Below the pieces are notes generated by a model that was not told the origin of the DNA, did no database searches, and saw only the letters and a program-made list of their open reading frames with translations. A program made the translations under genes and the position numbers. 64,000 bases of DNA from an uncultured bacterium (GTDB taxonomy: Bacteria > Hydrothermota > UBA3073 > NMUJ01 > CBEVQO01): positions 79,597-143,596 of the forward strand of contig CBEVQO010000005.1 in the NCBI GenBank assembly GCA_965552055.1, written 5' to 3'. This document shows, in pieces, positions 19,101 through 33,509 of this stretch. Within the stretch, counting starts at the first letter, position 1. The number at the start of each line of letters is the position of its first letter.

Positions 19101-19115
19101 GAGGTAAAAAAATAA
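16104..19115 (+). CDS. Surface protein: N-terminal ~200-aa aromatic-rich putative beta-barrel region followed by ~8 tandem CARDB-like Ig-fold repeats
   Basis: Signal peptide. The N-terminal segment is rich in alternating aromatic and Gly residues (GLIGGWGGWLGLGV). Then come repeated ~115-aa units starting P(E/D)hxVEFxDxxxDGxLxxGExGxhxhxhKN, typical of CARDB domains. Confidence 0.6.
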   Translation: MKKYLIVLFVCLNVEALTLKNPFDMPKKGIWYRKPGIKAVDGIGLMVGYPLSSVRIFKYSLGYQLKYLPMLGVGCAFWEGLCYYNYSDSLCSSLFPVYFYLVNGYSPYRDKKAKDWSCRPVLYTYVSFSMWSSLRYHSKRDGAFIRGGLALRWNFGTFSYGLEAGVFKIWSKNGFDTGIKFYFGLIGGWGGWLGLGVKKFYPPKFVPEVVIEDSTGDGVFTPSEKGKIILKVKNEGKGPSLKLKIFPEILTEQFKDAIKIGKFKMVKRIKVGAEHQWEVPLRTEWFLPEGECEIAFKGIDAKFNKMEVRTKIRAQRTPPPELYVEFKDKTGDGILTGEESGEIKVSVQNVARTTLYGIKLICRPDKDLQKYISVKKSVVIGKLSPRRRKEAKFDLRSLHSLPTGEFKLTIVCRDARGRENKEEITIKTQKLPAPDFEVEFADPNNSGYLEAGEEAEILLKFKNKSIGTNKNIVVNLSLKEKKFEKHIEIPEKVKCGDILSGKEKRIPVKIKAGFYLPDGEITIVARGKDDLDNTFEKELKIRTKSVVLPEMIVEFRDENKNSALEPSEKGNIFVVLKNRWALPNRGIKLKLNIKELKFQKEIILQKFINVGTIKPGAVCSTRAFIVAKPTLPEGEFTIKIEGEDFKGNKFSKEITIPTRKILAPELSVSFADASGDGIFDAGEEGVLKLKLKNVSGLKHQDVVMEIKVKEHKFAKDLKFQDKVNMGDLLPDEEKEKEIKIVAKKSLQSGEFTLLIKGEDKLGVKFSEELTIRTKALPPLALTPRLIDERKDGVLEAGEKAEFHLEITNSTPVKLTGIKVYLMPDVKIARYLKFVKSKSVGSMEPGATDSVKLPVRAFYNIREGEFPLTFKIETAEGIKAEGKYLLKTKKAYPPEMYVRFEDESKDGVLSPGEKGEVKISFKNTSFVRFSNVRLTFNIKEIRYRKLVKIQSSRKIKIEPQSEEEIAIPVSTKKKIKEGQFTIAIDYEDEFHHRIKREIKIEVKK

Positions 19116-19164: not shown

Positions 19165-20154
19165 ATGAAGACCCTGTTCTGTTACAAGGATGTTTTTAGA
19201 GAGTTTTTAAAGAAGTTATCCTGCAGATATAAAATTTTTGCTCCTGTTGAAGGCATTTTTGGTACTTCTTTTGAGCAGCTTGATGAAGATAATATTGATA
19301 GGATTCGCTTATTTGATGCTCGTTTGTCACAATCACTTAAATGGTTTTTCTATCCGCCTTTTGAATGTGTAACAGAAGAAGCAAAAGCAGAAGATTTTAT
19401 AGTGATAGGAGCAAAAGCATGCGATATAAAGGCTTTAAAAATACTTGATAATGTGTTTATTGGTGGAGATTATGTTGATGATTTTTATAAATCAAAAAGA
19501 GAAAAGGGTATAATAATTGCTTGTGATTGCACTGAGCCTTTGGAATATTGTTTTTGCATATTGCTGGGTGATAAGCCATATGTTGAAGAGGGTGCTGACC
19601 TATCGATTTCCGAGGTCCCACGGGGATACATAATAGATGTTTTGACGGAAAAAGGAGAGAATTTAATTCGTGGATTGAATTCAAGAGAAGCAGAAAGGAC
19701 AGAAATTGAGCAAAGGGAGGACAATAGAAAAAAAGTTATAGAAAAATTAAAAGAGATAAATAAGAAATTCAAATCCCTTGATAATGTTCGTGATATTATA
19801 AAAGATTTATATGATAGTGAAGTGTGGCGTGAATATAGTGAGAGATGTGTTGAATGTGGTGCATGCACAATGGTATGTCCATCCTGTCATTGTTTCCTTT
19901 TACAGGAGAGTGTTGTCAGGGAATTTGGCAAAAACAGAGTTTGGGATTCATGCCAATATACCGGGTTTGCAAGGGAAGCAGGAGGTGCCAATCCTCGTAA
20001 AGAAGTATTTGAGCGCCTGAGAAACAGGTATTATTGTAAGTTCCAGTATAAGCCCGAGAATTTTGACCTTGTTGCGTGCACTGGCTGTGGTAGATGTGTT
20101 GCGGCGTGTCAGGGTGGGATTGATATGAGAGAGGTTTTGAGCAAGATGCTATGA
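19165..20154 (+). CDS. Sulfhydrogenase beta-subunit (HydB/AsrA)-like iron-sulfur protein
   Basis: CVECGACTMVCPSCHCF and CTGCGRCVAACQ motifs. 329 aa. ATGA coupling to the downstream gene. Confidence 0.75.
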   Translation: MKTLFCYKDVFREFLKKLSCRYKIFAPVEGIFGTSFEQLDEDNIDRIRLFDARLSQSLKWFFYPPFECVTEEAKAEDFIVIGAKACDIKALKILDNVFIGGDYVDDFYKSKREKGIIIACDCTEPLEYCFCILLGDKPYVEEGADLSISEVPRGYIIDVLTEKGENLIRGLNSREAERTEIEQREDNRKKVIEKLKEINKKFKSLDNVRDIIKDLYDSEVWREYSERCVECGACTMVCPSCHCFLLQESVVREFGKNRVWDSCQYTGFAREAGGANPRKEVFERLRNRYYCKFQYKPENFDLVACTGCGRCVAACQGGIDMREVLSKML

Positions 20155-21020
20155 GCATTTATAAGCCAATAAGAGCAAGGGTAGAGAAAATAGTTGATGA
20201 GACACCAAACATTAAAACATTTACACTTGTGCCAGAAAAGGAGATATCTTTTAAAACCGGTCAATTTATAGCACTTACTGTGCCAAAAGTAGGAGAAGCT
20301 CCTTTTACCCCTTCATCTTCACCTTATCAGAAAGATAAATTTGATGTTACGATAATGAAAATCAATTATAGAACAAGAGAAGGATTTGAGTATAAAGGTT
20401 ATGTTACTAATGCGATTCACAATTTGAAAGAAGGAGATGTTGTTGGAGTGAGGGGTCCTTATGGTCGTGGTTATCCTGTTGATAAGATGTATGGTAAAGA
20501 GATTTTGATAGTAGGTGGTGGTGTTGGCATGGCACCTTTGAGGTCTTTTCTTTTGACAGTTTTGCATGATATTGATAAATTTAAGAGGGTTATTTTATGT
20601 TACGGAGCAAGGACTCCCAAAGATATAGTTTATAAGAAGCAATTTGAAGAAGAATGGATGAAAAACGAAAGGTTAGAGGTTTACAGAAGTGTTGACAAAG
20701 CAGATGAAACTTGGCGAGAAGTTGAAGGAGTAGTTACTGTTTTACTTGATCAGTTTAAACCCGGTGATAAAAAAGCAATAAATCCGGATGAGTGTATATC
20801 TGTGGTTTGTGGTCCACCTATAATGATGAAATTTACGGTTAAAAAGCTGGTTGAAGATTTGAAGTTAAAGCCTGAAAATATTTATTTGTCTATGGAAAAG
20901 AATATGTCATGTGGCTTGGGTAAATGCGGTCACTGTCAGATAGGCAAATATTATGCATGTAAAGATGGTCCGGTATTTGCATATTCAGAAATAATGGATA
21001 TACCGGGGATATGGGAATGA
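20151..21020 (+). CDS. Sulfhydrogenase gamma-subunit (HydG/AsrB/PyrK)-like FAD/NAD(P)-binding oxidoreductase with C-terminal [2Fe-2S]
   Basis: FNR-like fold (ILIVGGGVGMAPLRSF, GPP motif) and a C-terminal CGLGKCGHCQIGKYYACKDGPVF cluster motif. Confidence 0.8.
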   Translation: MSIYKPIRARVEKIVDETPNIKTFTLVPEKEISFKTGQFIALTVPKVGEAPFTPSSSPYQKDKFDVTIMKINYRTREGFEYKGYVTNAIHNLKEGDVVGVRGPYGRGYPVDKMYGKEILIVGGGVGMAPLRSFLLTVLHDIDKFKRVILCYGARTPKDIVYKKQFEEEWMKNERLEVYRSVDKADETWREVEGVVTVLLDQFKPGDKKAINPDECISVVCGPPIMMKFTVKKLVEDLKLKPENIYLSMEKNMSCGLGKCGHCQIGKYYACKDGPVFAYSEIMDIPGIWE

Positions 21021-21424
21021 AATCAAAAATTGTAGAGAAGGTTCGTTTTACAAATTTTGTTGATAAAGAAAAGGTAGTGGAAGCCGATGCTTTAATTGAT
21101 ACAGGTGCTACTATTTGTGCTTTACCGAAAGATATGGTTGAGAAATTGGGCTTACAGAGATTGAGGAAAGCAAAAGTCCGCCATGCTGATAATAGAGTAG
21201 CGGAAAAAGATGTTTACGGTGTTGTAACTATAAGGATTCTCAACAGAGAAGGTGAGTTTAATGTTGTATGTGAGGAAGAGGGTACCCAGCCCTTGATTGG
21301 CTTAACGGTTTTGGAGCAATTAGATTTAATGATTGACCCATCGAGGAAATGTGTGATACCCAACCCAAGGTCAGGTGATTTACCTGTAGTTGATTTAATA
21401 AGCCATGAAGCGAATATTTATTGA
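21017..21424 (+). CDS. Retropepsin-like (clan AA) small aspartic protease, paralog 1
   Basis: ALIDTGATICALP carries the D-T-G-A catalytic motif. ~135 aa. The distal IGLTVLEQLDLMIDP region is retropepsin-like. ATGA overlap with the hydG-like stop when started at the 21017 ATG (the ORF-track start is 21011). Confidence 0.6.
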   Translation: MKSKIVEKVRFTNFVDKEKVVEADALIDTGATICALPKDMVEKLGLQRLRKAKVRHADNRVAEKDVYGVVTIRILNREGEFNVVCEEEGTQPLIGLTVLEQLDLMIDPSRKCVIPNPRSGDLPVVDLISHEANIY

Positions 21425-21863
21425 TCTGGAGAAGTGTTATAAATGCGAGAAGTGTGTAGCCAGGTGCAACTATCCGTATCATCCGGATAATAATGGGGTG
21501 CTGAAACTGATAGAAATGGGTGTGAGGGAAACCGTTTGCAGAAAATGTGAAGATGCTCCCTGTATAAATGCATGTCCAAACGAAGCTCTTGAAAGATTAG
21601 AAGATGGAAGAGTTAAAAGGTATAATATGAGGTGTACTGGATGTGGCACATGTGTTGTTGCATGTCCTTTTGGTGTTATTTTCCATGAAATAATAACCTA
21701 TTATGATTCGCAATGTGATTTCTGTGAAGGAAGGGAACCTTTATGTGTGAAGACATGTCCTCATGGTGCGATAAAATATGAAGAGGTTGAAGAAGAGCCC
21801 GAAAAAAGGGTTTATGTTATTGGAGATAAATTTGCTGTTCATGCAATGGGGTGGGAGAGATGA
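21405..21863 (+). CDS. HycB/HydN-like 4Fe-4S ferredoxin (electron-transfer subunit)
   Basis: Four Cys clusters (CYKCEKCVARC, CRKCEDAPCINACP, CTGCGTCVVACP, CDFCEG..CVKTCP). Confidence 0.8.
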   Translation: MKRIFIDLEKCYKCEKCVARCNYPYHPDNNGVLKLIEMGVRETVCRKCEDAPCINACPNEALERLEDGRVKRYNMRCTGCGTCVVACPFGVIFHEIITYYDSQCDFCEGREPLCVKTCPHGAIKYEEVEEEPEKRVYVIGDKFAVHAMGWER

Positions 21864-22780
21864 AGTGGCTATTTGATTTTGTGGTATTTCCTGGCTTTGT
21901 ATTTACTGCGGTAATTGGGTGTATAGTCAAGTGGTTTGACAGGAAGCTTACTGCGAGGATACAGTGGCGGGTTGGTCCACCTTTTTTACAGCAGTTTTAT
22001 GACTTTATAAAACTTACTGCGAAGGAAACGATAATACCAAAAGGTGCAGGTGCTACATTTGTATTGCCTCCGATTATAAGTGTAGTAGCAGTTACTATTG
22101 TGTCAACATTGATATGGAAAGCGATATTAAATCCCGAGCAGACATTTGTTGGTGACCTTATCGTTGTGATTTATTTCCTTATGGTTCCTAATATTTGTGC
22201 GATAATAGGGGGTGCTGCTTCTCGCAATCCTTTGGCTTCTTTGGGTGTAAGCAGGGAGTTGAAGCTGTTACTTGCTGACGAGTTGCCCTTTATTCTTGCT
22301 GCATTTGTACCTGTTATAAAGGCACATACAATTAGACTTGGAGAGTTACTTACATGGCAATGGAATAATGAATTGTTTATTGCTTCTGCATCAGGTATTA
22401 TTGCATTTCTCGTAATTTTAGCGTGTATGCAGGCGAAACTTGCTTATCAGCCATTTGACATTCCTGAGGCAGAGACAGAGATAATAGCAGGTCCTTATAC
22501 TGAGTATTCTGGTGTGCTTCTGGGTCTTTTCCTTTTATCTCGCTGGATGCTGTTATTTGCACTACCCATGTTTGTAGTTGTTATGTTCCTTGGTGGCATT
22601 AAATTTTCTGGCTGGCATACTCTCTGGGGTATTTTGAAGTATATAGGATTGCTGATTTTGATAATAGTGGTTAAGAATACGAATCCGAGGATAAGGATAG
22701 ATCAGGCTCTTAAATTTTTCTGGTGGGGTGTTACACCTCTTGCTATTTTGTCTGTTGTTCTTGCACTATTTGGTTTGTAA
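21860..22780 (+). CDS. NuoH/MbhM/HycD-like membrane subunit of the group-4 hydrogenase
   Basis: RKLTARIQWRVGPP signature of NuoH-family subunits and ~8 TM helices. Start chosen at the ATG that overlaps the upstream stop as ATGA. The ORF track uses the GTG at 21851. Confidence 0.85.
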   Translation: MKWLFDFVVFPGFVFTAVIGCIVKWFDRKLTARIQWRVGPPFLQQFYDFIKLTAKETIIPKGAGATFVLPPIISVVAVTIVSTLIWKAILNPEQTFVGDLIVVIYFLMVPNICAIIGGAASRNPLASLGVSRELKLLLADELPFILAAFVPVIKAHTIRLGELLTWQWNNELFIASASGIIAFLVILACMQAKLAYQPFDIPEAETEIIAGPYTEYSGVLLGLFLLSRWMLLFALPMFVVVMFLGGIKFSGWHTLWGILKYIGLLILIIVVKNTNPRIRIDQALKFFWWGVTPLAILSVVLALFGL

Positions 22781-22887
22781 TGCGAGCGTTAGCGAGCTCA
22801 TTTCATATGGGTTTTTTGTCGCACCCGAGCGAAGCGAGGGTTGCGCAAATGGGAAGGTGGGGACTGGGAGGCGGGGCTAAAAATATC
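22781..22887 (-). repeat. GC-rich intergenic repeat, compact inverted copy (R1) of the family also found at 33947 and 45537
   Basis: The reverse complement contains TTAGCCCCGCCTCCCAGTCCCCACC, a CGCAACCCTCGC core, and GCTCGCTAACGCTCGCA. These match the head, core and tail motifs of R2 and R3. Confidence 0.7.
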
Positions 22888-22914
22888 TTGACAAAGTTAT
22901 ATTTTGATTATAAG
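22888..22914 (+). promoter_or_regulatory. Internal promoter-like element TTGACA-N15-TATAAG upstream of the NuoB-like gene
   Basis: Same architecture as the other promoters in the window. It lies between repeat R1 and the ATG at 22922. Confidence 0.45.
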
Positions 22915-22921
22915 AAGAGCC

Positions 22922-23338
22922 ATGGGTATTAAGATTGGTGCTTTAAAGAGGTCTATATGGCTTTTTCATTTTAATTCGGGTTCATGCAATAACTGTGATA
23001 TTGAGATTGTTGACTGTTTAACTCCTCGGTATGACATTGAGAGATTTGGCTTGAAACTTGTAGGTAGCATTCGTCATGCTGATGTTCTTGTAGTAACGGG
23101 TTTTGTCAGCCGTCAGAGTGCTATTCGTTTAAAGAGGTTGTGGGAGATGATGCCAGAGCCTAAGTTTGTTGTAGCAGTTGGTACCTGTGCGTGTTCTGGT
23201 GGTATTTTTGCAGAATCCTATCATATGGCGGGTCCTGTTGATAAGATAATACCTGTTCATGCTTATATACCAGGTTGTCCGCCCAAGCCGGAAGCTATAA
23301 TTTCTGGTATTGTGAAATTGTTGAACACTTTAAAATGA
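22922..23338 (+). CDS. NuoB/MbhJ-like [NiFe]-hydrogenase small subunit (group 4)
   Basis: CNNCDIEI, GTCACSGG and IPGCPP cysteine motifs for the proximal 4Fe-4S cluster. Start set at the ATG (MGIKIG) downstream of the promoter element. The ORF-track start at 22904 lies inside the promoter. Confidence 0.85.
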   Translation: MGIKIGALKRSIWLFHFNSGSCNNCDIEIVDCLTPRYDIERFGLKLVGSIRHADVLVVTGFVSRQSAIRLKRLWEMMPEPKFVVAVGTCACSGGIFAESYHMAGPVDKIIPVHAYIPGCPPKPEAIISGIVKLLNTLK

Positions 23339-23712
23339 GTGAAATCAAAGTTATGGAGGATTTACTGAAAGAGGCAAAGAAATATATTGAAGAGGGTAAT
23401 GTTGTTCAGGCGAGCGAGAAGATTTATAAGGTGATAGAGGAAGGCATTAAGTTTTTATCGAGCAGGGATGGAGTTCCTGAATATTCTGTTGCGCAGAAGG
23501 AAGGCAGGTGGTGGACGCATTTACTTGGTAAGGCAGCTGTTCGACTTTCTAAAAAATATAATGAACAGATGATAAATGATTGCTGGGCAAATGCCTATGA
23601 CCTTCATGTATGGGGTTATCACGAAAGGAAATATGATATGGATACGGTTAAACCTAAATTGAGATATGCAGAGTGGATGCTTGAATTTGTAAAGAAGGTG
23701 TCAAATGAGTGA
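23335..23712 (+). CDS. Small helical protein, family X copy A (tentatively PaREP1/HEPN-like)
   Basis: ~125 aa. EAKKYIEEGNVVQASEKIYKVIEEGIKFL...LHVWGYHER motifs. The start overlaps the NuoB-like stop as ATGA. The longer ORF-track start at 23275 is rejected. Confidence 0.55.
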   Translation: MSEIKVMEDLLKEAKKYIEEGNVVQASEKIYKVIEEGIKFLSSRDGVPEYSVAQKEGRWWTHLLGKAAVRLSKKYNEQMINDCWANAYDLHVWGYHERKYDMDTVKPKLRYAEWMLEFVKKVSNE

Positions 23713-24085
23713 GGAGATAAAAGTTATGGAAGAGTTGCTGAAGGAGGCAAAGAAATATATTGAAGAGGGTAATGTTGTTCAGGCGAGCGAGAAGATTTAT
23801 AAGGTGATAGAGGAAGGCATTAAGTTTTTATCGAGCAGGGATGGAGTTCCTGAATATTCTGTTGCGCAGAAGGAAGGCAGGTGGTGGACGCATTTACTTG
23901 GTAAGGCAGCTGTTCGACTTTCTAAAAAATATAATGAACAGATGATAAATGATTGCTGGGCAAATGCCTATGACCTTCATGTATGGGGTTATCACGAAAG
24001 GAAATATGATATGGATACGGTTAAACCTAAATTGAGATATGCAGAGTGGATGCTTGAATTTGTAAAGAAGGTGTCAAATGAGTGA
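23705..24085 (+). CDS. Small helical protein, family X copy B (identical to copy A at nucleotide level except the first ~25 nt)
   Basis: Tandem duplicate with an 8-nt ATGAGTGA start/stop overlap. Confidence 0.55.
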   Translation: MSEEIKVMEELLKEAKKYIEEGNVVQASEKIYKVIEEGIKFLSSRDGVPEYSVAQKEGRWWTHLLGKAAVRLSKKYNEQMINDCWANAYDLHVWGYHERKYDMDTVKPKLRYAEWMLEFVKKVSNE

Positions 24086-24458
24086 GGAGATAAAAGTTAT
24101 GGAAGAGTTGCTGAAGGAGGCAAAGAAATATATTGAAGAGGGTAATGTTGTTCAGGCGAGTGAGAAGATTTATAAGGTGATAGAAGAAGGCATTAAGTTT
24201 TTATCGAGCAAGGATGGGATACCAGAGTATTCTGTTGCGCAGAGAGAAGGCAGATGGTGGATGCATTTGCTTAGTAAGGCATCTCGTCGTCTTTCTAAAA
24301 AATATAATGAAGATGAAATTTATCATGTGTGGAGTGTTGCGTATGATTTGCATGTATGGGGCTATCATGAAAGGAAACTTGATATAGAAGATGTTAAGCC
24401 AAATATTAAATATGCGGAGTGGATGCTTGAATTTGTGAAGAAGGTGTCAAATGAGTAA
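24078..24458 (+). CDS. Small helical protein, family X copy C (~80% identical to A and B)
   Basis: Third tandem copy, with the same 8-nt overlap into the NuoC-like gene. Confidence 0.55.
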   Translation: MSEEIKVMEELLKEAKKYIEEGNVVQASEKIYKVIEEGIKFLSSKDGIPEYSVAQREGRWWMHLLSKASRRLSKKYNEDEIYHVWSVAYDLHVWGYHERKLDIEDVKPNIKYAEWMLEFVKKVSNE

Positions 24459-24879
24459 GATTGATAAAATAAAAGAAAAGTTTGAGAAAGAGATAAAAAA
24501 GATAAAAAAAGTTGGTGAATTTGAATATTTTATTGATATTGACAGAAGAGATTTGCTTAAAGTGGTTGATTATATTTTTAACGATTTAAAAGGCAGATAC
24601 AATATTTTGTCTGCAACGGATCTGGAAGAGGGTTTTGAGATCCTTTATCATTTTAGTTTTGATGAAGAAGGTAAAAGGGTTACTTTGAGGGTGATGCTGT
24701 CTCATGAAAATCCAGAAGTTGAATCGATAAGTAGTATTGTAAAAGGTGCGCAATGGATAGAGAGGGAGATTATGGATTTACTTCCTATTAAATTTTTGAA
24801 TCATCCTGATCCTCGCAGATTTATCTTATCCGATGATTGGGAAGAGGGGGTATATCCTTTGAGAAGGGAGAAGAGATGA
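24451..24879 (+). CDS. NuoC/MbhK-like hydrogenase subunit
   Basis: EILYHFSF...RVTLRVML and the AQWIEREIMDLLPIKFLNHPDPRRFIL NuoC signature. Confidence 0.8.
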   Translation: MSKIDKIKEKFEKEIKKIKKVGEFEYFIDIDRRDLLKVVDYIFNDLKGRYNILSATDLEEGFEILYHFSFDEEGKRVTLRVMLSHENPEVESISSIVKGAQWIEREIMDLLPIKFLNHPDPRRFILSDDWEEGVYPLRREKR

Positions 24880-26087
24880 AAAGGGTGATACCGATAGGCC
24901 CTTATCATCCATTACAGGAAGAAGCGGAGTTTTTCCAATTATATGTTGAAGGTGAAACGGTAGTTGATGTTGACTGGAAAACAGGTTTTAATCACAGGGG
25001 GATAGAGAAAATTTCACAATCGCTTTCTTATGATCAAGTTGCTTTTCTTGTGGAGAGAGTTTGTGGGATATGTTCCACTTCTCATCCGATTGCCTATTGT
25101 AATGCTGTTGAAGAGATATGTGGTATTGAGATACCTGAGAGAGCAAAGTATATAAGGAGCATAATAGGCGAATTGGAGCGTATACATTCGCATTTATTGT
25201 GGCTGGGGCTCGCAGGTCATTTTATTGGATATGACACACTGTGGATGTGGGCATGGAAATACAGAGAGCCTGTTCTCGACATCATGGAGATGATAACGGG
25301 AAATAGGCAAAATTATGCAATGATGAAGCCAGGGGGCGTTAGGAGAGATATCGATGAAGATAAGATACCTGATATTAAAAAAGTTTTAAATAGTTTGAAA
25401 CCTGTTCTTGAAAAGTTTGCCAAAATTGCAATGGATGATCCTGTTTTGCATGCTCGCACAAAGGGTGTTGGTATATTGACAAAGGAAGAGGCACATAATT
25501 TTGGGGCAGTGGGTCCTACTGCGAGGGCATCTGGCTTAAAAATAGATGTGAGGTGTGATTTTCCTTATGCTGCTTATCCTCTTGTTGAATGGGAAGTTAT
25601 AACAACGGAAAATGGAGATGTTTTTGATAAAATTGTTGTAAGAGTGCTTGAGATGATAGAATCTGTTAAAATAATTGAGCAATGTCTTGATAGGTTGAAA
25701 GAAGCGAAAGGAGAGATTGATGCAAAGATAAAGGAAGTTCCACCTGGTGAAGGTATAGGGACTCATGAAGCTCCAAGGGGTGAGGTTTTTCATTATGTAA
25801 AGTCAGATGGCAGTAATAGACCTGTGAGGCACAAAATAAGGGCACCGAGTTATTGTAATGTTCCGACATTTAAAGTTACATGCGTTGGATATCAGGTTGC
25901 TGATGCGGTTATTGCGCTTGCAGCGGTTGACCCTTGTTACAGCTGTACTGAAAGGATGGAAGCGATAGTTGATGGCAAAAGGATTTTAAAGTGGAGAGAT
26001 TTGATAAGGATGAGCAGGCAGAAGACAGAAAAGATAAAGGCAGAGGTTGGCAGGGATTTTCTTTTGAAAGAAAAACCCGAATTGTGA
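24876..26087 (+). CDS. Group-4 [NiFe]-hydrogenase large subunit (NuoD/HycE/MbhL-like) with intact Ni-Fe ligands
   Basis: N-terminal ERVCGICSTSH (RxCGxC) and C-terminal DPCYSCTER (DPCxxC). After the cleavage-site Arg there is a ~43-aa C-terminal extension. Start at the ATG with a GGGAGAAGAG ribosome-binding site and ATGA overlap with the NuoC-like stop. Confidence 0.9.
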   Translation: MKRVIPIGPYHPLQEEAEFFQLYVEGETVVDVDWKTGFNHRGIEKISQSLSYDQVAFLVERVCGICSTSHPIAYCNAVEEICGIEIPERAKYIRSIIGELERIHSHLLWLGLAGHFIGYDTLWMWAWKYREPVLDIMEMITGNRQNYAMMKPGGVRRDIDEDKIPDIKKVLNSLKPVLEKFAKIAMDDPVLHARTKGVGILTKEEAHNFGAVGPTARASGLKIDVRCDFPYAAYPLVEWEVITTENGDVFDKIVVRVLEMIESVKIIEQCLDRLKEAKGEIDAKIKEVPPGEGIGTHEAPRGEVFHYVKSDGSNRPVRHKIRAPSYCNVPTFKVTCVGYQVADAVIALAAVDPCYSCTERMEAIVDGKRILKWRDLIRMSRQKTEKIKAEVGRDFLLKEKPEL

Positions 26088-26491
26088 TGGATGTAATAAA
26101 AGAAATGGAAGTAAGTTTATATTGTGACGGAAAAAGTAGTAAAAAGATGAGATTATATTTTGATAGTGGCTCACCTTATACTTTTATAAAAAAGTCGAGT
26201 GCAGAAGCGATAGGAGGTATTTTTAAATTACCATCTGAAGAAAGATTCGTTGGACTTGGAGGCGGCGGATTTATAAGTGCGGAAGCACAGCATCTTCATA
26301 TAAAGGTTTCAAATGTATGGTGCGCGCATTTTGTTTATGTGATTGATGATGCTATTTTCAAAGATGAGTATGATATGCTTGTTGGTCATGATTTTATGCA
26401 AAAATATGGTATAAAGGTGGTGCCTCATACAGGTGATATTGAGATAGATGAGGTTAGATTGAAATTATCGCAAACTGTGAGGATGGTATGA
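26087..26491 (+). CDS. Retropepsin-like small aspartic protease, paralog 2 (D-S-G-S variant)
   Basis: YFDSGSPYTFI aligns with the DTGA and DTGS motifs of paralogs 1 and 3. The ATG overlaps the large-subunit TGA by 1 nt (TGATG). Confidence 0.5.
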   Translation: MDVIKEMEVSLYCDGKSSKKMRLYFDSGSPYTFIKKSSAEAIGGIFKLPSEERFVGLGGGGFISAEAQHLHIKVSNVWCAHFVYVIDDAIFKDEYDMLVGHDFMQKYGIKVVPHTGDIEIDEVRLKLSQTVRMV

Positions 26492-28281
26492 CGGATATTC
26501 TTTATCTATTATTAATACCTGCTGGTGCCGGTGTTTTGAGTTTGTTGTTGCCTCGTCGTGCTAAAATTGGTGCAGAAATAATTGGCTTACTTGGTAGTGC
26601 GGGAGCGCTCTTTTATTGTGTGCTTATCTATTTGCGTTATAACTCATTTACCAATGCATGGTGGAGAATCGATGGATTATCCCGTTTTATACTTTTATTC
26701 TGTGGTATTTTTGGATTTATAATAACTCTTTATTCACTTCCTTATATGAGGAAATTTAAAAAGTTAAATGAGTATTATGGCTATCTGTTATTTACAATTG
26801 CAGGTTCATTTGGTGTGGTTCTTGCCAACAATTTGATTTTATTCCTTGCCTTGTGGGGCTTTTTGGGTTTGACTCTTTATCTTCTGGTAAACATAAGTGA
26901 TGAAGGCTCGCCTGCAGCGAAGAAGACGATGATAATTGTAGGAGGTGCAGATTGTTTGATGATATTCGGGATAGTTGTATTAATTTTGATGACTTTTTCT
27001 TTCAGGATGGACCAGATGAATGTAAATGTTTCGGTTTCTCCTTTAGCGGCTCTTGCCTTTGTTGTTCTTGCACTTGCTGCCTTTGCCAAAGCAGGTGTTA
27101 TGCCCATGCATACATGGATGCCTGATTATACGCAATGTGCACCAACATCCGTAGCTGCTTATCTGCCTGCGTCACTTAATAAATTGTTGGGAATATATCT
27201 GCTTATGAGATTGGTTAAAGATATTTTTAAGTTGAATAATGCTATGCAAATATTTTTGCTTGCTATTGGAGCATTCACTATTATAGCTGGTGTAATGATG
27301 GCGTTAATCCAGCATGATGTTAAAAGAGTGCTTTCTTATGATGCAATATCACAGGTTGGATATATGGTGCTGGGGATAGGGACATTGAATTCCATAGGTT
27401 TTAGCGGAGGTTTATTCCATATGTTAAATAGTGCGATATTTACAGGATGTTTATTTCTTACTGCAGGGAGTGTTGAACACAGGTCAGGCACAACCGACCT
27501 TGATAAACTTGGAGGATTGTCTCGCTATATGCCTGTTACTTTTATTGCATTTATAATATCAGCGCTGGCGATATCAGGAGTGCCGCCACTTAATGGCTTT
27601 TTCAGTAAATGGATGATTTATCAGGGGATAATTAAGCTTGGTGAAAAGAGTAAACTTTGGATTTTGTGGATTGCGTGTGCGATGTTTGGTAGTGCGTTGA
27701 CCCTTGCAAGTTTTATGAAGCTTTTGCATGCAATTTTCCTCGGACAAAAAGCCGATTATAAGAAAGAAATAAAAGAGGTGAATTTTGCAATGTTGCTACC
27801 GCAAATGTTCCTTGCTGCTTTATGCTTTGTATTTGGTATATGGGCATTTAATGTTCCACTGAGTAAATTGATTTATCCTGCTGTTGGAAGTGTGCCTCAT
27901 TTTGTAGGCTGGTGGGAGCCCTGTCTTGCTACGATTTTGATAATCGTGGGAATATTAATAGGTGCTATAATTTATGTTGCTGGAAAAGTGAAGGTCAGGG
28001 AAGAGGAGCATCCATTTATCGGTGGAGAGATTTTACCAGAAGAAGCAAGGATTACGGGTGTAGATTTTTATAAGACAGTAGAAGAGATGTGCGTTATAAG
28101 GACTTTTTACGGCTTGGCAAAGAAAAAATTGTTCGATATTTATGAATTGTGCAAAAGAATGTTTCTCTATCTTGGAAGTAAGATTTCGAAGTTGCATACT
28201 GGTGTTTTGACATCTTATATTGGCTGGATATTCTTTGGTTTTATCATAATTTTATTCGTGGTTTGGATGCTTAAATGGTAG
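26488..28281 (+). CDS. MrpA/NuoL-like antiporter-type membrane subunit (proton-conducting membrane transporter family)
   Basis: 597 aa with ~16 TM helices. The WMPDYTQCAPTSVAAYLPASLNKLLGIYLLMRL core is typical of the NuoL/MrpA/MrpD family. Confidence 0.8.
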   Translation: MTDILYLLLIPAGAGVLSLLLPRRAKIGAEIIGLLGSAGALFYCVLIYLRYNSFTNAWWRIDGLSRFILLFCGIFGFIITLYSLPYMRKFKKLNEYYGYLLFTIAGSFGVVLANNLILFLALWGFLGLTLYLLVNISDEGSPAAKKTMIIVGGADCLMIFGIVVLILMTFSFRMDQMNVNVSVSPLAALAFVVLALAAFAKAGVMPMHTWMPDYTQCAPTSVAAYLPASLNKLLGIYLLMRLVKDIFKLNNAMQIFLLAIGAFTIIAGVMMALIQHDVKRVLSYDAISQVGYMVLGIGTLNSIGFSGGLFHMLNSAIFTGCLFLTAGSVEHRSGTTDLDKLGGLSRYMPVTFIAFIISALAISGVPPLNGFFSKWMIYQGIIKLGEKSKLWILWIACAMFGSALTLASFMKLLHAIFLGQKADYKKEIKEVNFAMLLPQMFLAALCFVFGIWAFNVPLSKLIYPAVGSVPHFVGWWEPCLATILIIVGILIGAIIYVAGKVKVREEEHPFIGGEILPEEARITGVDFYKTVEEMCVIRTFYGLAKKKLFDIYELCKRMFLYLGSKISKLHTGVLTSYIGWIFFGFIIILFVVWMLKW

Positions 28282-28823
28282 ACCTTTATATCATAATTGG
28301 GATTATGATTTTAAGTGCCATAATTGCTCTTGAAGTACGGGACCTTATTTCTTCGATTATATGTGCTGGTGTGTGTGGTTTTGCACTTGTTTTTGTGTTT
28401 CTGCGTTTACATGCACCTGACCTTGCGGTCGTTCAAATGATTGTGGAAACTCTATCTTTAATAATTTTAATAGCAGCAATTTTGAGGACTACAAGAGAAG
28501 ATGTTCAGGAAGGGATTTCATTTAACAAAGTAATTTTGTATCTTGGAGGACTATTTTTTGTGATAATATTTATGATATTTGCATATAATGTTATAAATGA
28601 TATGGCGAAGTTTGGAGAGCCATATTTGAGAATGTCTTATCCTTATATTGAGCAAGGTGTTAGAAGTTTATTCAATGGTGGTCCAAAAGTTGCGAATATT
28701 GTGGGAGCTGTTCTGCTTGATTTCAGGGGATATGATGCACTTGGATGTGCTACAGTGCTGTTTGCCTCTGCGATAGGTGTTCTTGTAGTTTTGAGGAAAA
28801 TAGGTAGAAAAAAGGATGTTTAA
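28275..28823 (+). CDS. MbhD/MrpA-C-terminal-like (DUF4040-type) small membrane subunit
   Basis: 182 aa with 4-5 TM helices, located in the Mrp module. Confidence 0.55.
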   Translation: MVDLYIIIGIMILSAIIALEVRDLISSIICAGVCGFALVFVFLRLHAPDLAVVQMIVETLSLIILIAAILRTTREDVQEGISFNKVILYLGGLFFVIIFMIFAYNVINDMAKFGEPYLRMSYPYIEQGVRSLFNGGPKVANIVGAVLLDFRGYDALGCATVLFASAIGVLVVLRKIGRKKDV

Positions 28824-29217
28824 ATTTGATAAATATTTAAAGGAAGCAAAGAGATATATTGAAAAAGGGGATGCGGTGCAGGCAAGCGAGAAACTTTATA
28901 AGTGTGGTAAAGAAGCGATAAAATTGCTAGCTGAAACTTTTGATATTGAAGAAAATAAAGAAGCAAAAGAGATGGGAAGATGGTATACGCCTTTACTTGG
29001 AAATGCTGCGATTAGATTGAGTAAAATTGTGGATAGCAGGATATTTGCTTTTTGGAAGACAGTTTATTATTTGCATTGTGAAGGGTTTCATGAGCGTCAT
29101 CTTGATGTTGAAAATGTAAGAGAAAATCTTAAAGATATTGAAGAATTGGTTGAAATAGCGAAGAAATATAAAAATGAAAGAGGGATAAATGAAGGAAGGG
29201 ATGAGTTTGATAGTTAA
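28816..29217 (+). CDS. Small helical protein, family X copy D (~35% identical to A-C)
   Basis: AKRYIEKGDAVQASEKLYKCGKEAIKLL...LHCEGFHERHLD. The same 8-nt overlap style (ATGTTTAA) with the upstream gene. Confidence 0.5.
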   Translation: MFKFDKYLKEAKRYIEKGDAVQASEKLYKCGKEAIKLLAETFDIEENKEAKEMGRWYTPLLGNAAIRLSKIVDSRIFAFWKTVYYLHCEGFHERHLDVENVRENLKDIEELVEIAKKYKNERGINEGRDEFDS

Positions 29218-29626
29218 AACAGTTGCAAGGATTTTAAGCTGGGTAATAGCACTTTATGGTGCTTACATTGTGGCGCATGGTCATCTTACACCTGGTGGTG
29301 GTTTTGCAGGGGGTGCTATAATTGCCTGTGCTTTTATTCTGCTGTTCCTCGCTTACGGGTCCGAGGTGAAAGAAAGCCGGGTTAAGCTTTTACAGGCGTT
29401 ATTTGCAGGAAGCCTTGGAGTATTCTTCTTCTGGCTGATTGCACTACTTGGATTATGTTTCGGAACATACTTCTTCTCAAACTTATTTGCTAAGGGTAAA
29501 GCATTTTGTCTTTTTAGTGGTGGGATAATTCCTGTTTGTAATGCTACGATAGGTTTTGGAGTGGCAGGTGCTTTGTGTATGATATTCATAGGTTTTGCTG
29601 CAATTAAATTATTGGAAGGAAAATGA
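29189..29626 (+). CDS. MrpB/MnhB-like membrane subunit
   Basis: HGHLTPGGGFAGGAI signature of MnhB-family subunits. Confidence 0.75.
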   Translation: MKEGMSLIVKTVARILSWVIALYGAYIVAHGHLTPGGGFAGGAIIACAFILLFLAYGSEVKESRVKLLQALFAGSLGVFFFWLIALLGLCFGTYFFSNLFAKGKAFCLFSGGIIPVCNATIGFGVAGALCMIFIGFAAIKLLEGK

Positions 29627-29973
29627 TTTATTATTTGCTTGGAATATTGCTTTTTGCGATAGGGCTGTATGGAGTGCTTACAAAGAGGAATCTATTTAAA
29701 ATAATAATTGGCTTGCTGATAATAGAATATGCTGTATTTTTGATGTTTGCACTTGTGGGATACAGAGAAGGAGGCATTGCTCCTGTTTTTGTGAAAGGCT
29801 TATCAGCAGGAGATGCGATACAAAAAATGGTTGACCCTATTCCTCAATCACTGGCTCTAACTGTGATGATTATTGGATTGGGTGCTATTGCATTGATATG
29901 TGCACTTGCCGTAAGGATTTATGAAAAATATGGTACACTCGATGTCAGGAAAATTAAGAAATTAAAAGGATGA
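29623..29973 (+). CDS. MrpC/NuoK-like membrane subunit
   Basis: 116 aa with three TM helices. YLLGILLFAIGLYGVLTKRNLFKIIIGLLIIEYAV is typical of NuoK/MrpC. Confidence 0.8.
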   Translation: MIYYLLGILLFAIGLYGVLTKRNLFKIIIGLLIIEYAVFLMFALVGYREGGIAPVFVKGLSAGDAIQKMVDPIPQSLALTVMIIGLGAIALICALAVRIYEKYGTLDVRKIKKLKG

Positions 29974-30332
29974 TGGGCATGGTGGAAGTTAAAATTAAAA
30001 TGATAAATCCCCAGAATGGTAAAAAAATGTGTGAGTTAAACTTTGTAGCAGATACAGGTTCGATTTACAGTGTGGTATCTGTTGAGGAACTTTCAAAGAT
30101 AGGGATAACTCCTCGGTATGAGCGTGAGTTTAAAACTATTGACGGTAAAAAGATTCGTCGCAAAGTTGGCATTGCAATATTTAAATACAAAGAATATGAA
30201 GGAGGAGCTCCTGTGATTTTTGGTGAAAAAGAAGATATGAATGTGCTTGGTGTTACTGCACTCGAAGCAATGGGACTGGAAGTTGACCCTGTAAATAAAG
30301 AATTAAAACCTGTAGAATTATTGTTGCTATGA
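29970..30332 (+). CDS. Retropepsin-like small aspartic protease, paralog 3
   Basis: FVADTGSIYSVV (D-T-G-S). 120 aa. The ATG overlaps the upstream stop as ATGA, and the downstream start overlaps this gene's stop as ATGA. Confidence 0.55.
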   Translation: MMGMVEVKIKMINPQNGKKMCELNFVADTGSIYSVVSVEELSKIGITPRYEREFKTIDGKKIRRKVGIAIFKYKEYEGGAPVIFGEKEDMNVLGVTALEAMGLEVDPVNKELKPVELLLL

Positions 30333-31813
30333 TGGAGTGGAGCATTCCAATATTTGTTGCTATACCTTTATTCTTTGCGTTTATTTTACCGATTGCAGGT
30401 AGGAAGTCAGAGAGGGTGGGTGATGTGCTTGCAAATATAGGGACACTTACTACATTAATATTCGCTATACTGAATGTTAAATTTATGAAAGAAACATCGG
30501 TATATTATGTCGGAGGATGGAAGTTGCCCATGGGAATCTATCTTGTGCGTGATGCACTTACAATATTTATGCTCATTACGGTAAATCTTGTTGCGTTTAT
30601 GTCAACTTTATTCTCAATAAATTATATGCAGAAATTTACAGATAAAACAAAATATTATGCATTATTTATGTTGATGCTTGCTGGTATGAATGGTGTGATA
30701 ATTACAGGTGACTTTTTCAACCTTTATGTTTTCCTTGAGATAGCTGCGATTGCATCTTATGCACTTGTAGCGTATGGGATAGAATCAGAAGAGTTAGAAT
30801 CTGCATTCAAATATCAGGTGATGGGAAGTGTCGGTTCTGCATTTATTCTTCTGGCAATAATTCTGATTTATTCTCATACAGGTACATTGAATATGGCTGA
30901 TGTAGGTAAAGTTCTTAAAGAAAAAGGTTTATCAAATCTTTTAATTTTTACAAGTGTTTTATTTATCGTTGGCTTTGGTATAAAGGCTGGTGTTATTCCT
31001 TTCCATGCGTGGTTGCCCGATGCACATCCATCTGCACCTGCACCAATATCCGCAATGCTATCAGGAGCTGCGATAAAAGTAATGGGAATCTATCCATTAA
31101 TCAGAATAATTTATAATGTAATAGGGTTTAATGAATTGTTCTCCAACATTTTGATGATTCTTGCTGTCATTTCAATAATAATCGGTGATTTACTTGCACT
31201 GTTGCAATGGGATTATAAGCGTTTGCTTGCATATTCGAGTATAAGCCACATCGGATTCATATTGCTTGCTGTGGGATTGGGTACGCCTCTTGGAATTCTT
31301 GCAGGATTATTCCATTTATTTAATCATTCTGTTATTAAAGCGTTGTTATTCCTGAATTCTGGTAGTATTGTTTATTCTGCTGGTACTAGGGATTTAAAAG
31401 AGATGGGAGGATTAGATAAAGATATGCCTGTGACAAGTAAAACAAATCTAATAGGTTCTATGTCTATTGCAGGTATTCCGCCATTTAATGGATTCTGGTC
31501 GAAGTTGCTGATTATAGTGGCGTGTATTACAGCGGGTAAAGCGGGCTATGCATGGTGGGCGATAGCAGGTAGTATAATCACACTCGCTGTGTTTGCCAAA
31601 GCATACAAATATGTATTCTGTGGTGAAAGTAAGAAAAAAGTTAAAGAATCACCTGCATGGATGTGTATAGCGATGATAATACTGGCAATAATTTGTGTTG
31701 CAGGAGGATTGTTGCTCTTACCAGAAGTAAAAGTCGCTTTCTTAAATCCAGTAGTGGAAGTGATTAGAGGAGGTTTACAGTATATCGATAGGGTGCTGGG
31801 AGGATTGCAATGA
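30329..31813 (+). CDS. MrpD/NuoN-like antiporter-type membrane subunit
   Basis: HAWLPDAHPSAPAPISAMLSGAAIKVMGIYPLIRI core and ~14 TM helices. Confidence 0.85.
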   Translation: MMEWSIPIFVAIPLFFAFILPIAGRKSERVGDVLANIGTLTTLIFAILNVKFMKETSVYYVGGWKLPMGIYLVRDALTIFMLITVNLVAFMSTLFSINYMQKFTDKTKYYALFMLMLAGMNGVIITGDFFNLYVFLEIAAIASYALVAYGIESEELESAFKYQVMGSVGSAFILLAIILIYSHTGTLNMADVGKVLKEKGLSNLLIFTSVLFIVGFGIKAGVIPFHAWLPDAHPSAPAPISAMLSGAAIKVMGIYPLIRIIYNVIGFNELFSNILMILAVISIIIGDLLALLQWDYKRLLAYSSISHIGFILLAVGLGTPLGILAGLFHLFNHSVIKALLFLNSGSIVYSAGTRDLKEMGGLDKDMPVTSKTNLIGSMSIAGIPPFNGFWSKLLIIVACITAGKAGYAWWAIAGSIITLAVFAKAYKYVFCGESKKKVKESPAWMCIAMIILAIICVAGGLLLLPEVKVAFLNPVVEVIRGGLQYIDRVLGGLQ

Positions 31814-32295
31814 GGTATATCGTTTTGTTCATCTTTGCTTATGTAATGTGGATTCTGCTGACCTGTGCCGTTGACTGGCAGCATTTACTTACAGGCGCAC
31901 TTGTATCTTTACTTATCACAATAATTTTTGGCAAAAGTGCATTCGCCGGTAAGGTTAAATTCTTTGATTTAAGAAGATGGTTCTGGTTTATAGTTTACAT
32001 CTTTGTATTTTTATGGGAATGTATAAAGGCAAATATTGATGTTGCGTACAGGGTTATTCATCCTCTTATGCCGATAAAACCTGGAATTGTGAAAGTTAAA
32101 ACAAATTTGAAGTCGGACATTGCGAAAACATGGCTGGCAAATTCAATAACAATGACACCGGGAACATTATCTGTGGATATAGATGGGGAATACCTTTATG
32201 TCCACTGGATGTATGTGAGGGATGAAAGTTTGGAAGGTGCTACAGAAAAAATAGTCGGTAGATTTGAAAAGTTACTTATGAGAATATTTGAATAG
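31810..32295 (+). CDS. MrpE-like subunit
   Basis: 161 aa with two N-terminal TM helices plus a soluble tail, in the MrpE position of the Mrp gene order. Confidence 0.65.
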   Translation: MRYIVLFIFAYVMWILLTCAVDWQHLLTGALVSLLITIIFGKSAFAGKVKFFDLRRWFWFIVYIFVFLWECIKANIDVAYRVIHPLMPIKPGIVKVKTNLKSDIAKTWLANSITMTPGTLSVDIDGEYLYVHWMYVRDESLEGATEKIVGRFEKLLMRIFE

Positions 32296-32303
32296 GAGCA
32301 GTT

Positions 32304-32558
32304 ATGATGCCACTAATTTTAATATTGATAGGAATAATGGTGCTGTGCCTGATAAGAGTATGGTCTGGTCCCACTATTGCCGATAGGCTTGTTGCAGTTA
32401 ATATGTTTGGGATAATTATGGCAGGAATTACAGGGTTGCTTTCGATTCTTTTCTATCGGGAATTCCTTATAGATATTGCTCTTGCATGTATTTTTTTGCT
32501 TTTCATAGGCACAATAGCGTTTGCGAAATATCTGGAAAAGAGGAGGTTTGATGATTGA
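32304..32558 (+). CDS. MrpF-like subunit
   Basis: 84 aa. IRVWSGPTIADRLVAVNMFGIIMAG is the MrpF/PhaF signature. Confidence 0.75.
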   Translation: MMPLILILIGIMVLCLIRVWSGPTIADRLVAVNMFGIIMAGITGLLSILFYREFLIDIALACIFLLFIGTIAFAKYLEKRRFDD

Positions 32559-32892
32559 GAAAATAGGTTTTGTAATAATATGCATTGGAATTGCTTTTAA
32601 CTTCTTCGGGATACTTGGGTTATTGCGTTTACCCGATGTTTACAATAGATTACAGGCATCTACAAAATGTGTAGCTCTTGGCACATGCGGGATAATGTTT
32701 GGTGTATTTTTGATGGCACTGGCGAAAGGAATGATAAGTTTGGGTATAAAAGCACTTGTTGCAATACCTTTAATTTTCATTACATTAGCTACCGGTTCAC
32801 ATGCACTCGCAAGGGGAGCACATAAATTTGGCATAAAGCTATGGGAAAAGAGCATCTGCGATAAATATAAAGAAGATAAGGGGGATAAATGA
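32551..32892 (+). CDS. MrpG/MnhG-like subunit
   Basis: GILGLLRLPDVYNRLQASTKCVALG is the MnhG signature. Start at the ATG with an AGGAGG ribosome-binding site. Confidence 0.75.
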   Translation: MIEKIGFVIICIGIAFNFFGILGLLRLPDVYNRLQASTKCVALGTCGIMFGVFLMALAKGMISLGIKALVAIPLIFITLATGSHALARGAHKFGIKLWEKSICDKYKEDKGDK

Positions 32893-33509
32893 AATTGCCG
32901 AAAATTAGAGAATTGGGAGAAGCTTTGAAAGCAATTTTTACAGGTCCCTATACTCTTAAATTCCCGGCAGGTCCGCCAGCAGAAACCACCAAATACTACA
33001 GGGGAAAGCCTGTGCCAGACGACGATTATTGCGTGGGATGCACTGCATGCGCATCAGTGTGTCCTTCAAAAGCAATAGAAGTGGAAGATGACCCGAAAAA
33101 GGGAATAAGAAAAATAATAAGAAGATACGATAAATGCATATACTGTGGGCAATGTGAAAGATATTGTCTCACAGAAAAAGGTGTTCACCTGACACAGGAA
33201 TGGGATTTAGCGGGATTCAAGCGCGATGAGATGCGATATGTCCAGGAAAAAGAATTAGTAGTTTGTGATAGATGCGGAGAAGTGATAAGCACAAAGCAAC
33301 ATCTTTTATGGCTTGCACATAAACTTGGAGAAATGGCTTACGGAAATTATCCTTTGATTTTGGTATCCTATGATAAATTACAAATTGTAAAACCTGTTCG
33401 CGAAAAAATAGAAAAAGAAAAACCAGTAACAAGGCAGGACTTTTTCAGAATCTTATGCCCCAAATGTAAACACATAGTCATCCTTTACGATAAATACGCG
33501 ATAAGGTGA
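32889..33509 (+). CDS. NuoI/MbhN-like 2x[4Fe-4S] hydrogenase subunit
   Basis: CVGCTACASVCP and CIYCGQCERYC motifs. Confidence 0.85.
   Translation: MKLPKIRELGEALKAIFTGPYTLKFPAGPPAETTKYYRGKPVPDDDYCVGCTACASVCPSKAIEVEDDPKKGIRKIIRRYDKCIYCGQCERYCLTEKGVHLTQEWDLAGFKRDEMRYVQEKELVVCDRCGEVISTKQHLLWLAHKLGEMAYGNYPLILVSYDKLQIVKPVREKIEKEKPVTRQDFFRILCPKCKHIVILYDKYAIR

Follow-up and report, generated by a model that had tools for sequence, protein, structure and literature searches.

What three genes for retropepsin-like aspartic proteases are doing inside a hydrogenase operon is the question raised by a 64,000-nucleotide stretch of DNA from an uncultured bacterium (the window, part of a 180-kb NCBI contig, CBEVQO010000005.1). 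The operon encodes a group-4 membrane-bound [NiFe]-hydrogenase with an Mrp module, and the three genes, here called RP1, RP2 and RP3, are accompanied in it by four PaREP1 genes, which an initial annotation of the DNA overlooked among the small guests of the operon. These seven guest genes, whose products are small and soluble, sit at five operon junctions. As far as the searched literature shows, the location of retropepsin genes in a hydrogenase operon is unreported, and no paper in the searched library links aspartic proteases to such operons, in line with the initial annotation. The latter also saw in the RP genes integral parts of the operon, with processing or quality control of hydrogenase or antiporter subunits, or a structural part, as possible roles; the comparative data do not support this view. 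The guests are very probably a lineage-specific insertion and not a conserved hydrogenase component, because 80 related operons lack these genes and the relatives of the RP proteins lie in different phyla or domains.

The related operons come from a large-subunit scan of one genome per species, which yielded 80 loci with 58-79% large-subunit identity from Omnitrophota, Planctomycetota, Ignavibacteria, WOR-3, Cloacimonadota, Marinimicrobia, Bacillota and others; the nearest belong to Omnitrophota and to unclassified 'uncultured bacterium' MAGs. These loci keep the same 17-gene order as the window operon, and RP or PaREP1 matches are found in none of them (0/80). At the corresponding junctions little space is left between the genes (median gaps 5-47 nt). 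L005, the closest relative (79% identity), has direct ATGA overlaps at the HydG/ferredoxin, NuoB/NuoC and NuoD/MbhH boundaries, and these boundaries are the exact sites of RP1, the three tandem PaREP1 genes and RP2 in the window. Each guest site corresponds to exactly one ancestral junction. Given the absence of RP and PaREP1 genes from all 80 loci and the direct junctions of L005, the operon predates these guests, which joined it in a single lineage.

The nearest homologues of RP1 belong to Nitrososphaerota and Bathyarchaeia archaea (50-56% identity), those of RP2 to Anaerolineae, Poribacteria and Edwardsbacteria (40-58%), and those of RP3 are Chloroflexi-type proteins of 119 aa (~50%). Pairwise identity among RP1, RP2 and RP3 is 14-23%, as against 40-58% to proteins of other phyla or domains, and the three genes therefore represent separate acquisitions, not in-genome duplicates. 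The earlier description of them as paralogous holds in that all are retropepsin-like, but each has much closer relatives in other organisms. Seven homologues from other organisms were looked up (three of RP2, two of RP1 and two of RP3), and none has a hydrogenase or Mrp context. One lies between SelB and MglB/Ras-like genes, and one RP2 homologue is directly upstream of cas6 in a type I-D CRISPR locus. Others adjoin HicA/HicB or response regulators, and some are isolated in archaeal genomes or lie in miscellaneous neighbourhoods.

A metagenome scan with the RP2 family as query gave a similar picture, with hydrogenase or Mrp genes at 0 of 45 non-self loci. Here, the 124 ORFs neighbouring RP2-family genes match 110 different Pfam families. 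The sole recurrent families are other retropepsins, DUF5618, HicA, RelE, ParE, DUF433, UPF0150, DUF5678 and a few transport or secretion families, and the most frequent small ones occur two to three times each. Synteny of homologues with hydrogenase or Mrp genes beyond this lineage, on which the initial annotation had staked its proposal, was thus not found. A type II toxin-antitoxin or defence module with a fixed two-gene partner was also considered and set aside: no single partner family recurs beside RP2 homologues and the PADLOC matches are weak, all three RPs matching the defence-candidate component PDC-M08B weakly and RP1 matching PEPT_D, the Sulfolobales type III aspartyl protease, weakly as well (E 0.0046). 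In four metagenomic loci, an RP2-type gene is preceded at ~100-150 nt by an RP1- or RP3-type gene (L100, 3599-4560; L103, 5514-6399; L125, 3721-4558; L115, 48-1394). Some of these pairs follow a RelE/ParE-like gene, and RP2-type genes stand in tandem in L101. Such co-clustering of retropepsin subfamilies might reflect heterodimers or a mobile unit that they share. In L130, the RP2-type gene is immediately followed by a DUF5618 gene, and one is close by in L126 and L141.

By motif and profile, RP1, RP2 and RP3 are clan AA retropepsin-like proteins, with a predicted fold in agreement for RP1 and RP2. The initial annotation had located the three ORFs correctly and had recognized their D-(T/S)-G-(A/S) motifs and retropepsin-like distal segments; the profile matches, below threshold for RP3, and the two models bear out this assignment. 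Two hydrophobic residues precede D-[TS]-G-[AS] in each catalytic motif (LIDTGAT in RP1, YFDSGSP in RP2 and VADTGSI in RP3). Family alignments show the catalytic Asp and Gly to be invariant in all three families, the middle residue being Ser or Asn in RP2 relatives. A second hydrophobic-hydrophobic-Gly block follows (PLIGLTVLE in RP1, MLVGHDFMQ in RP2, VLGVTALE in RP3), and its Gly is invariant within each family. In the RP2 family of ~132-aa proteins, F25, D26, G28, S29, P30, G100, H101, F103, M104 and Q105 are invariant and D102 is nearly so, giving the consensus FD[SN]GSP and L[VA]GHDFMQ. The RP3 family conserves D-T-G, LGV and ELLLL.

Profile scores differ among the three. RP1 exceeds the Pfam thresholds of gag-asp_proteas (PF13975, 39.1 vs 28.2 bits) and Asp_protease_2 (PF13650, 32.4 vs 24.3 bits), and RP2 exceeds that of Peptidase_A2B alone (PF12384, 23.9 vs 21.2 bits). 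RP3 stays below threshold (21.3 vs 24.3 bits for PF13650 and 19.3 vs 28.2 for PF13975), but its ~50% identical, 119-aa homologues carry both domains. The public gene call for RP3 starts three codons past its first ATG, and an exact-sequence look-up from the first ATG therefore came back empty. The likeness to AF_0612/TIGR03698 proteins that the initial annotation suggested is one of relationship, not membership: RP1 (54.9 bits) and RP3 (42.8 bits) are related to this clan_AA_DTGF subfamily, but both fall below its curated cut-off of 57.35 bits, and RP2 has no match. AlphaFold monomer models were made for RP1 (pLDDT 88.6) and RP2 (pLDDT 91.8). In Foldseek searches of the PDB, their top matches are the DDI1/Ddi1 RVP domain and the HIV, FIV, EIAV and XMRV proteases (probability 1.0), with TM-scores of ~0.6 to DDI1 RVP and the retroviral proteases. 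A profile of the RP1 and RP3 families likewise matches DDI2, DDI1, HTLV protease and the Rickettsia retropepsin (ApRick) in the PDB. The RP proteins are new members of known, functionally uncharacterised families.

Known relatives share some of these features. Stand-alone prokaryotic clan AA retropepsins (PF13975, PF13650, TIGR03698) have the same ~120-135 aa length and both motifs, and solved relatives include Rickettsia APRc (5c9b/5c9f), the DDI1/Ddi1 RVP domain and the HIV, FIV and HTLV proteases. The RP proteins are soluble and lack a membrane anchor, whereas APRc is membrane-anchored. The RP2 family departs from the clan AA norm in its FD[SN]GSP motif, which often has Asn for Thr/Ser, and its GHDFMQ block, and its members have no precomputed Pfam domain. 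A parallel in genomic setting is the small aspartic protease (Asp_prot, ~100 aa; PEPT_D) that accompanies Sulfolobales type III-D CRISPR-Cas loci (PMC3973734). Like the RPs, it is a small stand-alone retropepsin-domain protein and a non-core passenger of another gene cluster (PMC3973734). However, its host locus serves defence, whereas the RPs reside in a respiratory hydrogenase operon, and the sequence similarity is weak.

Evidence from strains shows that the arrangement is real and confined to one species-level lineage. The order NuoD-RP2-MbhH-MbhDE-PaREP1-MnhB-MnhC-RP3-MrpD is found in L094 (GCA_964419125.1), parts of it in L090, L095/L097 and L096, and RP1-ferredoxin-NuoH in L085/L086; the fourth PaREP1 gene occupies the same position in strains L090 and L094. 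A 94%-identical strain also fixes the start of RP1. Homology to it begins at 21016 and only the ATG at 21017 is kept, so that RP1 starts at 21017, as in the ORF of the initial annotation, and not at 21011. Between RP1 and its counterpart in this strain (L085) there are 14 synonymous and 5 non-synonymous differences, for a dN/dS of 0.087 (ferredoxin 0.056, NuoH 0.044), and RP3 differs from that of the 99%-identical L090 by 6 synonymous and 1 non-synonymous changes. Purifying selection is accordingly clear from the sequences of RP1, and indicated for RP3 as far as so few differences allow. The guests do not differ from the host genes in GC or GC3. That the RP ORFs are non-functional, whether as remnants in decay, products of faulty gene calling or chimeras of assembly, is hardly credible. 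They are small, and RP2 and RP3 fall below most curated profile thresholds, but against this stand the recurrence of the arrangement in four or more further assemblies, made from different samples, the substitution patterns of RP1 and RP3, the confident fold predictions for RP1 and RP2, and full-length ORFs that align end to end with 40-58% identical homologues and keep the catalytic residues invariant. In L085/L086 (1-581, compared with window 20151-21020), an unrelated lipoprotein-like ORF lies upstream of RP1 in place of HydG. The stop codon of this ORF shares ATGA with the RP1 start, and the nucleotide match with the window sets in exactly at 21016. The L085 and L086 contigs may be one sample assembled twice.

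The host operon (Table 1) can be identified from its subunits and motifs as an Mrp-linked group-4 membrane-bound [NiFe]-hydrogenase operon. All of its genes are co-directional. The large subunit carries both Ni-Fe ligand motifs, RVCGICSTSH and DPCYSCTER, which conform to RxCGxCxxxH and DPCxxCxxR/H. By Pfam, the HydB-like protein is a 4Fe-4S protein, the HydG-like one an FAD/NAD/2Fe-2S protein, the NuoB-like one the small subunit and the NuoI-like one a 2x[4Fe-4S] protein. The families represented are Complex1_49kDa, NiFeSe_Hases, Oxidored_q6, Complex1_30kDa, NADHdh, Proton_antipo_M (twice), MbhD/E, MnhB, Oxidored_q2, MNHE, MrpF, PhaG_MnhG and HycI. The hydrogenase/Mrp surroundings and the HycI gene had been recognized correctly in the initial annotation.

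Table 1. Features of the hydrogenase/Mrp operon and its guest genes (window coordinates)
Feature	Position	Strand	Remarks
RP1, retropepsin-like, 135 aa, DTGA	21017-21424	+	HydG/ferredoxin boundary
RP2, divergent retropepsin-like, 134 aa, FDSGSP and LVGHDFMQ	26087-26491	+	large-subunit/MbhH boundary
RP3, retropepsin-like, 120 aa, DTGS	29970-30332	+	MnhC/MrpD boundary
PaREP1 tandem triplet	23335-23712, 23705-24085, 24078-24458	+	NuoB/NuoC boundary; HEPN-T type
Fourth PaREP1, 133 aa	28816-29217	+	MbhDE/MnhB boundary; PF05942, 98.5 bits
Host operon, group-4 membrane-bound [NiFe]-hydrogenase and Mrp module	19165-33946	+	Pfam assignments, large-subunit motifs
Operon gene order: HydB-HydG-ferredoxin-NuoH-NuoB-NuoC-NuoD (large subunit)-MbhH-MbhDE-MnhB-MnhC-MrpD-MnhE-MrpF-MnhG-NuoI-HycI		+	17 genes
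HycI-type hydrogenase maturation endopeptidase, canonical C-terminal processing protease	33506-33946	+	PF01750, 64.3 bits
Last ~10 large-subunit codons (…DFLLKEKPEL)	26056-26087	+	without counterpart in L005 or L006 (76-79% large-subunit identity)

The operon therefore already contains a protease of its own. Like the RPs, HycI/HybD-type endopeptidases are proteases of hydrogenase operons, and they remove the C-terminal extension of the large subunit. However, their fold and family are unrelated to those of the RPs, and HycI closes the operon in most of the 80 relatives, as it does in the window, while the RPs occur in none. The large-subunit tail after DPCYSCTER had been singled out as unusually long; it does measure 43 aa, but is only slightly long for its clade (median 34 aa, range 21-58). 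A tail of ~34 aa after DPCxxCxxR is close to the classic HycE-type extension. The C-terminal ends compare as …RQKTDRIRKELGL in L005 vs …RQKTEKIKAEVGRDFLLKEKPEL in the window. The extra ~9 residues probably came with the RP2 insertion, as a by-product and not an adaptation.

The four helical guests belong, by profile, to the PaREP1/PaREP8 family (PF05942, HEPN-T). Three of the four copies were scanned, and besides the fourth gene, the second and third tandem copies score 101.6 and 107.3 bits against a threshold of 24.4; the first tandem copy is 98% identical to the second. The tandem copies are 98% and 82% identical with a period of 373 nt, and the fourth PaREP1 is 46% identical to them. Their profile matches PDB 2jpu/2q00 (E 1e-19). 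H87, G90, H92 and E93 are invariant in 19 family members; the conserved His is kept and the canonical Rx4-6H Arg is absent. PaREP1 proteins are members of the HEPN toxin-type superfamily (HEPN-T clade) (PMC3710099), and their genes, mostly those of archaea, are known for standing in tandem arrays and for lineage-specific expansion (PMC3710099; PMC2701414). The window copies resemble the archaeal PaREP genes in forming a tandem array (PMC3710099). They differ in that the family is described as essentially archaeal whereas the window host, judged from its operon relatives, appears bacterial, and in that they lie inside an energy-metabolism operon, whereas described PaREP1 genes occur in tandem arrays or with MNT or restriction-endonuclease-type (DUF1626) genes. 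The family is rare: at 50% identity, it accounts for 218 clusters among 1.84 billion representatives.

The junctions are as compact as the initial annotation described. The HydG stop and RP1 start codons overlap as ATGA (21017-21020), and RP1 extends 20 nt into the ferredoxin gene. The NuoD stop and RP2 start share TGATG (26085-26089), and ATGA is found at RP2/MbhH, MnhC/RP3 and RP3/MrpD. All seven guests overlap the start and stop codons of their neighbours. Since the RP genes are co-directional with the hydrogenase and Mrp genes and overlap their start and stop codons, translational coupling with them is likely. Nevertheless, ATGA overlaps are the usual junction across this compact genome and are therefore not in themselves evidence of integration.

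Taken together, we consider it likely that the guests are lineage-specific small genes, added one by one at the boundaries of an old conserved operon and riding its expression. Without promoters of their own, they would be expressed from the operon transcript. The ATGA and TGATG overlaps would provide translational coupling, so that the insertions would be non-polar and hence tolerated. Entry may have occurred by microhomology-mediated insertion, followed by selection for compactness. The RP products would act as small soluble aspartic proteases that dimerise like retroviral proteases and the PaREP1 products as HEPN-like helical proteins, with targets outside the hydrogenase. Because of the neighbourhoods of the homologues elsewhere, the guests would most likely belong to a pool of small accessory or conflict-type genes that move horizontally and are found near toxin-antitoxin and CRISPR loci.

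Several observations weigh against such hitchhiking. The guests are unevenly distributed, occupying 5 of 16 junctions in the operon vs 1 of ~40 outside it in the window (Fisher p = 0.006, post hoc), the single outside case being a DUF5618 pair at 36056-36936. This clustering could mean a link to the operon and not neutral passage. Purifying selection and persistence in strains show that the guests are useful to something, and a role linked to the complex is possible. Moreover, no insertion route is seen, as no mobility machinery or recombinase gene was found by the guests. A recruitment of the RPs in this lineage as accessory factors of the complex, in which RP2 trims the large-subunit tail, RP1 and RP3 process or police their neighbours and PaREP1 proteins serve as accessory parts, is nonetheless quite unlikely. 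It would account for the concentration of the guests in this one operon of the window, for their placement, each suited to equimolar, coupled translation with a particular subunit, for the purifying selection on RP1 (clearly) and RP3 (on few differences) in an arrangement stable across strains, and for a large-subunit tail 9 aa longer than in the closest relatives. Yet neither RP nor PaREP1 genes occur in any of the 80 related operons, whose complex evidently needs no more than HycI to mature. Among the homologues examined elsewhere, not one has hydrogenase or Mrp genes nearby, each of the three proteases has its own unrelated source, an insertion by-product is the simpler explanation of the extra tail residues, and in the 94%-identical strain RP1 follows the lipoprotein-like gene and not HydG. 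A hydrogenase-specific role in this lineage, as judged from the sequences compared, has no comparative support.

It is also unlikely that the retropepsins and the HEPN-type proteins (PaREP1, possibly DUF5618) form one conflict or addiction system, or that the guests are single-gene mobile units homing to coupled boundaries. Under either version, they would persist because their loss harms or because they spread, not through benefit to the host. Consistent with this, RP and PaREP1 families lie together in one putative transcript here, with the DUF5618 tandem pair 2 kb away; DUF5618 adjoins or nears RP2-type genes in three metagenomic loci; RP2-type genes often stand by RP1- or RP3-type genes, in the four loci listed above, and by RelE, HicA or ParE genes; and PaREP1 belongs to a toxin-type superfamily with tandem arrays (PMC3710099). 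The weak PADLOC matches to a defence-candidate component, a rearrangement between strains whose breakpoint is precisely the RP1 start codon, and duplicated start motifs flanking RP1 (ATGAA), the PaREP1 array (AATGAGT) and RP3 (ATGATGG) point the same way. However, the ATGA overlap itself dictates 4 nt of these 5-7 nt motifs. Nowhere in the window does an RP gene adjoin a PaREP1 gene, and PaREP1 is absent from the recurrent neighbours of 31 RP2-family loci. The similarity of PaREP1 to DUF5618 is weak: the two families have an LHxxGY-type motif in common, but a profile-profile comparison (hhalign) gives a probability of 39% over 45 columns, which leaves homology open. In addition, guest composition is fully host-like, and no recombinase or mobility gene accompanies the guests. 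Searches for RP1, RP2, RP3 and PaREP1 copies on phages, plasmids and viral contigs found no true homologues, and a PHROGs search of the guests gave no meaningful match.

A wider version of this idea, and a very unlikely one, would make all such guests, perhaps DUF5618 among them and including the 23S_rRNA_IVP and PDDEXK_3 genes of related operons, single-ORF selfish units that insert or are kept at coupled boundaries, with retropepsin and HEPN proteins forming an addiction or conflict pair. It is hinted at because start-motif duplications occur at both guest ends and the rearrangement breaks at the RP1 start, and because 5 of 16 junctions are occupied and retropepsins adjoin each other, DUF5618 and toxin genes. 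If true, it would be an undescribed way for ~400-nt genes to spread and persist without a mobility gene. Repeats at the guests are confined to the tandem PaREP1 duplication and the 5-7 nt start-codon microduplications; terminal inverted repeats, shared inverted repeats and attC-like sites flanking them were sought and not found. Integron gene cassettes were ruled out, as the guests overlap the next start codon, leaving no room for attC (at least ~57 nt), and share no inverted repeat.

Insertion at operon boundaries, as preferred here, is not peculiar to the window. Long, tightly packed operons of this type repeatedly gain small foreign genes at their boundaries, as shown by the other small guests at intra-operon boundaries in 7 of the 80 related loci, and the window is an extreme case. 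The guests of relatives include 23S_rRNA_IVP four-helix-bundle genes in L016, L040, L064 and L065, with two intact copies and remnants at further junctions in L064 (WOR-3). PDDEXK_3 is found in L072, an IS200-like Y1 transposase in L026 and a methyltransferase-containing insert, assigned by eye, in L029. Both 23S rRNA intervening-sequence proteins (PF05635) and PDDEXK_3 'GxxExxY' proteins are known for turning up inside other transcription units. Their genes in the five loci named (L016, L040, L064, L065 and L072) resemble the window guests in being single small same-strand ORFs between conserved operon genes. They differ in belonging to other families, in usually having a 100-250 nt spacer and in numbering at most two intact copies per locus, vs seven overlapping genes here. 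A different extra gene, of ~565 aa with N-terminal Cys motifs, lies at the HydG/ferredoxin junction in 14 mostly planctomycete loci (among them L024, L030, L044, L050, L057, L061, L077 and L080). By eye, it is NuoG/molybdopterin-oxidoreductase-like, and the same boundary holds RP1 in the window.

The locus is thus a clean natural example of a conserved respiratory operon loaded with seven foreign genes at five boundaries, its gene order undisturbed. Guest density and neat integration make it noteworthy for genome evolution and not for hydrogenase biology: a link of retroviral-type proteases to hydrogenase or Mrp biogenesis is not backed by the comparative data, and no new maturation pathway emerges. 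In their behaviour, the three retropepsin subfamilies and PaREP1 resemble accessory genes that move horizontally, clustering with one another and with toxin-antitoxin genes. The window adds context for these subfamilies, which are poorly known, and for PaREP1 genes in bacteria, and narrows where to seek function.

Further observations concern the surroundings of the operon. No additional RP or PaREP1 copies were found in the other 49 kb of the window. The DUF5618 genes (36056-36490 and 36487-36936, minus strand) are 94% identical and overlap a NifU-like gene by 44 nt, and have the appearance of another guest pair, in a gene string nearby. An Rfam scan of the window returned zero RNA families, with no rRNA or tRNA. 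In a consensus scan, promoter-like counts in the operon equalled those of shuffled controls; terminator-like matches numbered 15 vs 8.8 expected, but lie inside coding sequence, and the scan gives no usable signal. An intergenic repeat of ~60+60 nt occurs at 22774-22910, where it fills the long NuoH/NuoB spacer, at 33918-34133 (inverted, after HycI) and at 45535-45873. One end carries a TTGACA...TATAAT-like stretch, and the repeat may be MITE-like or promoter-bearing. Directly upstream of the operon, an ORF of 1003 aa (16104-19115, plus strand), whose start overlaps the preceding gene by 4 nt, has a signal peptide-like N-terminus and ~8 repeats of a ~100-aa Ig-like module, with weak Pfam matches alone (Transglut_C, DUF4625).

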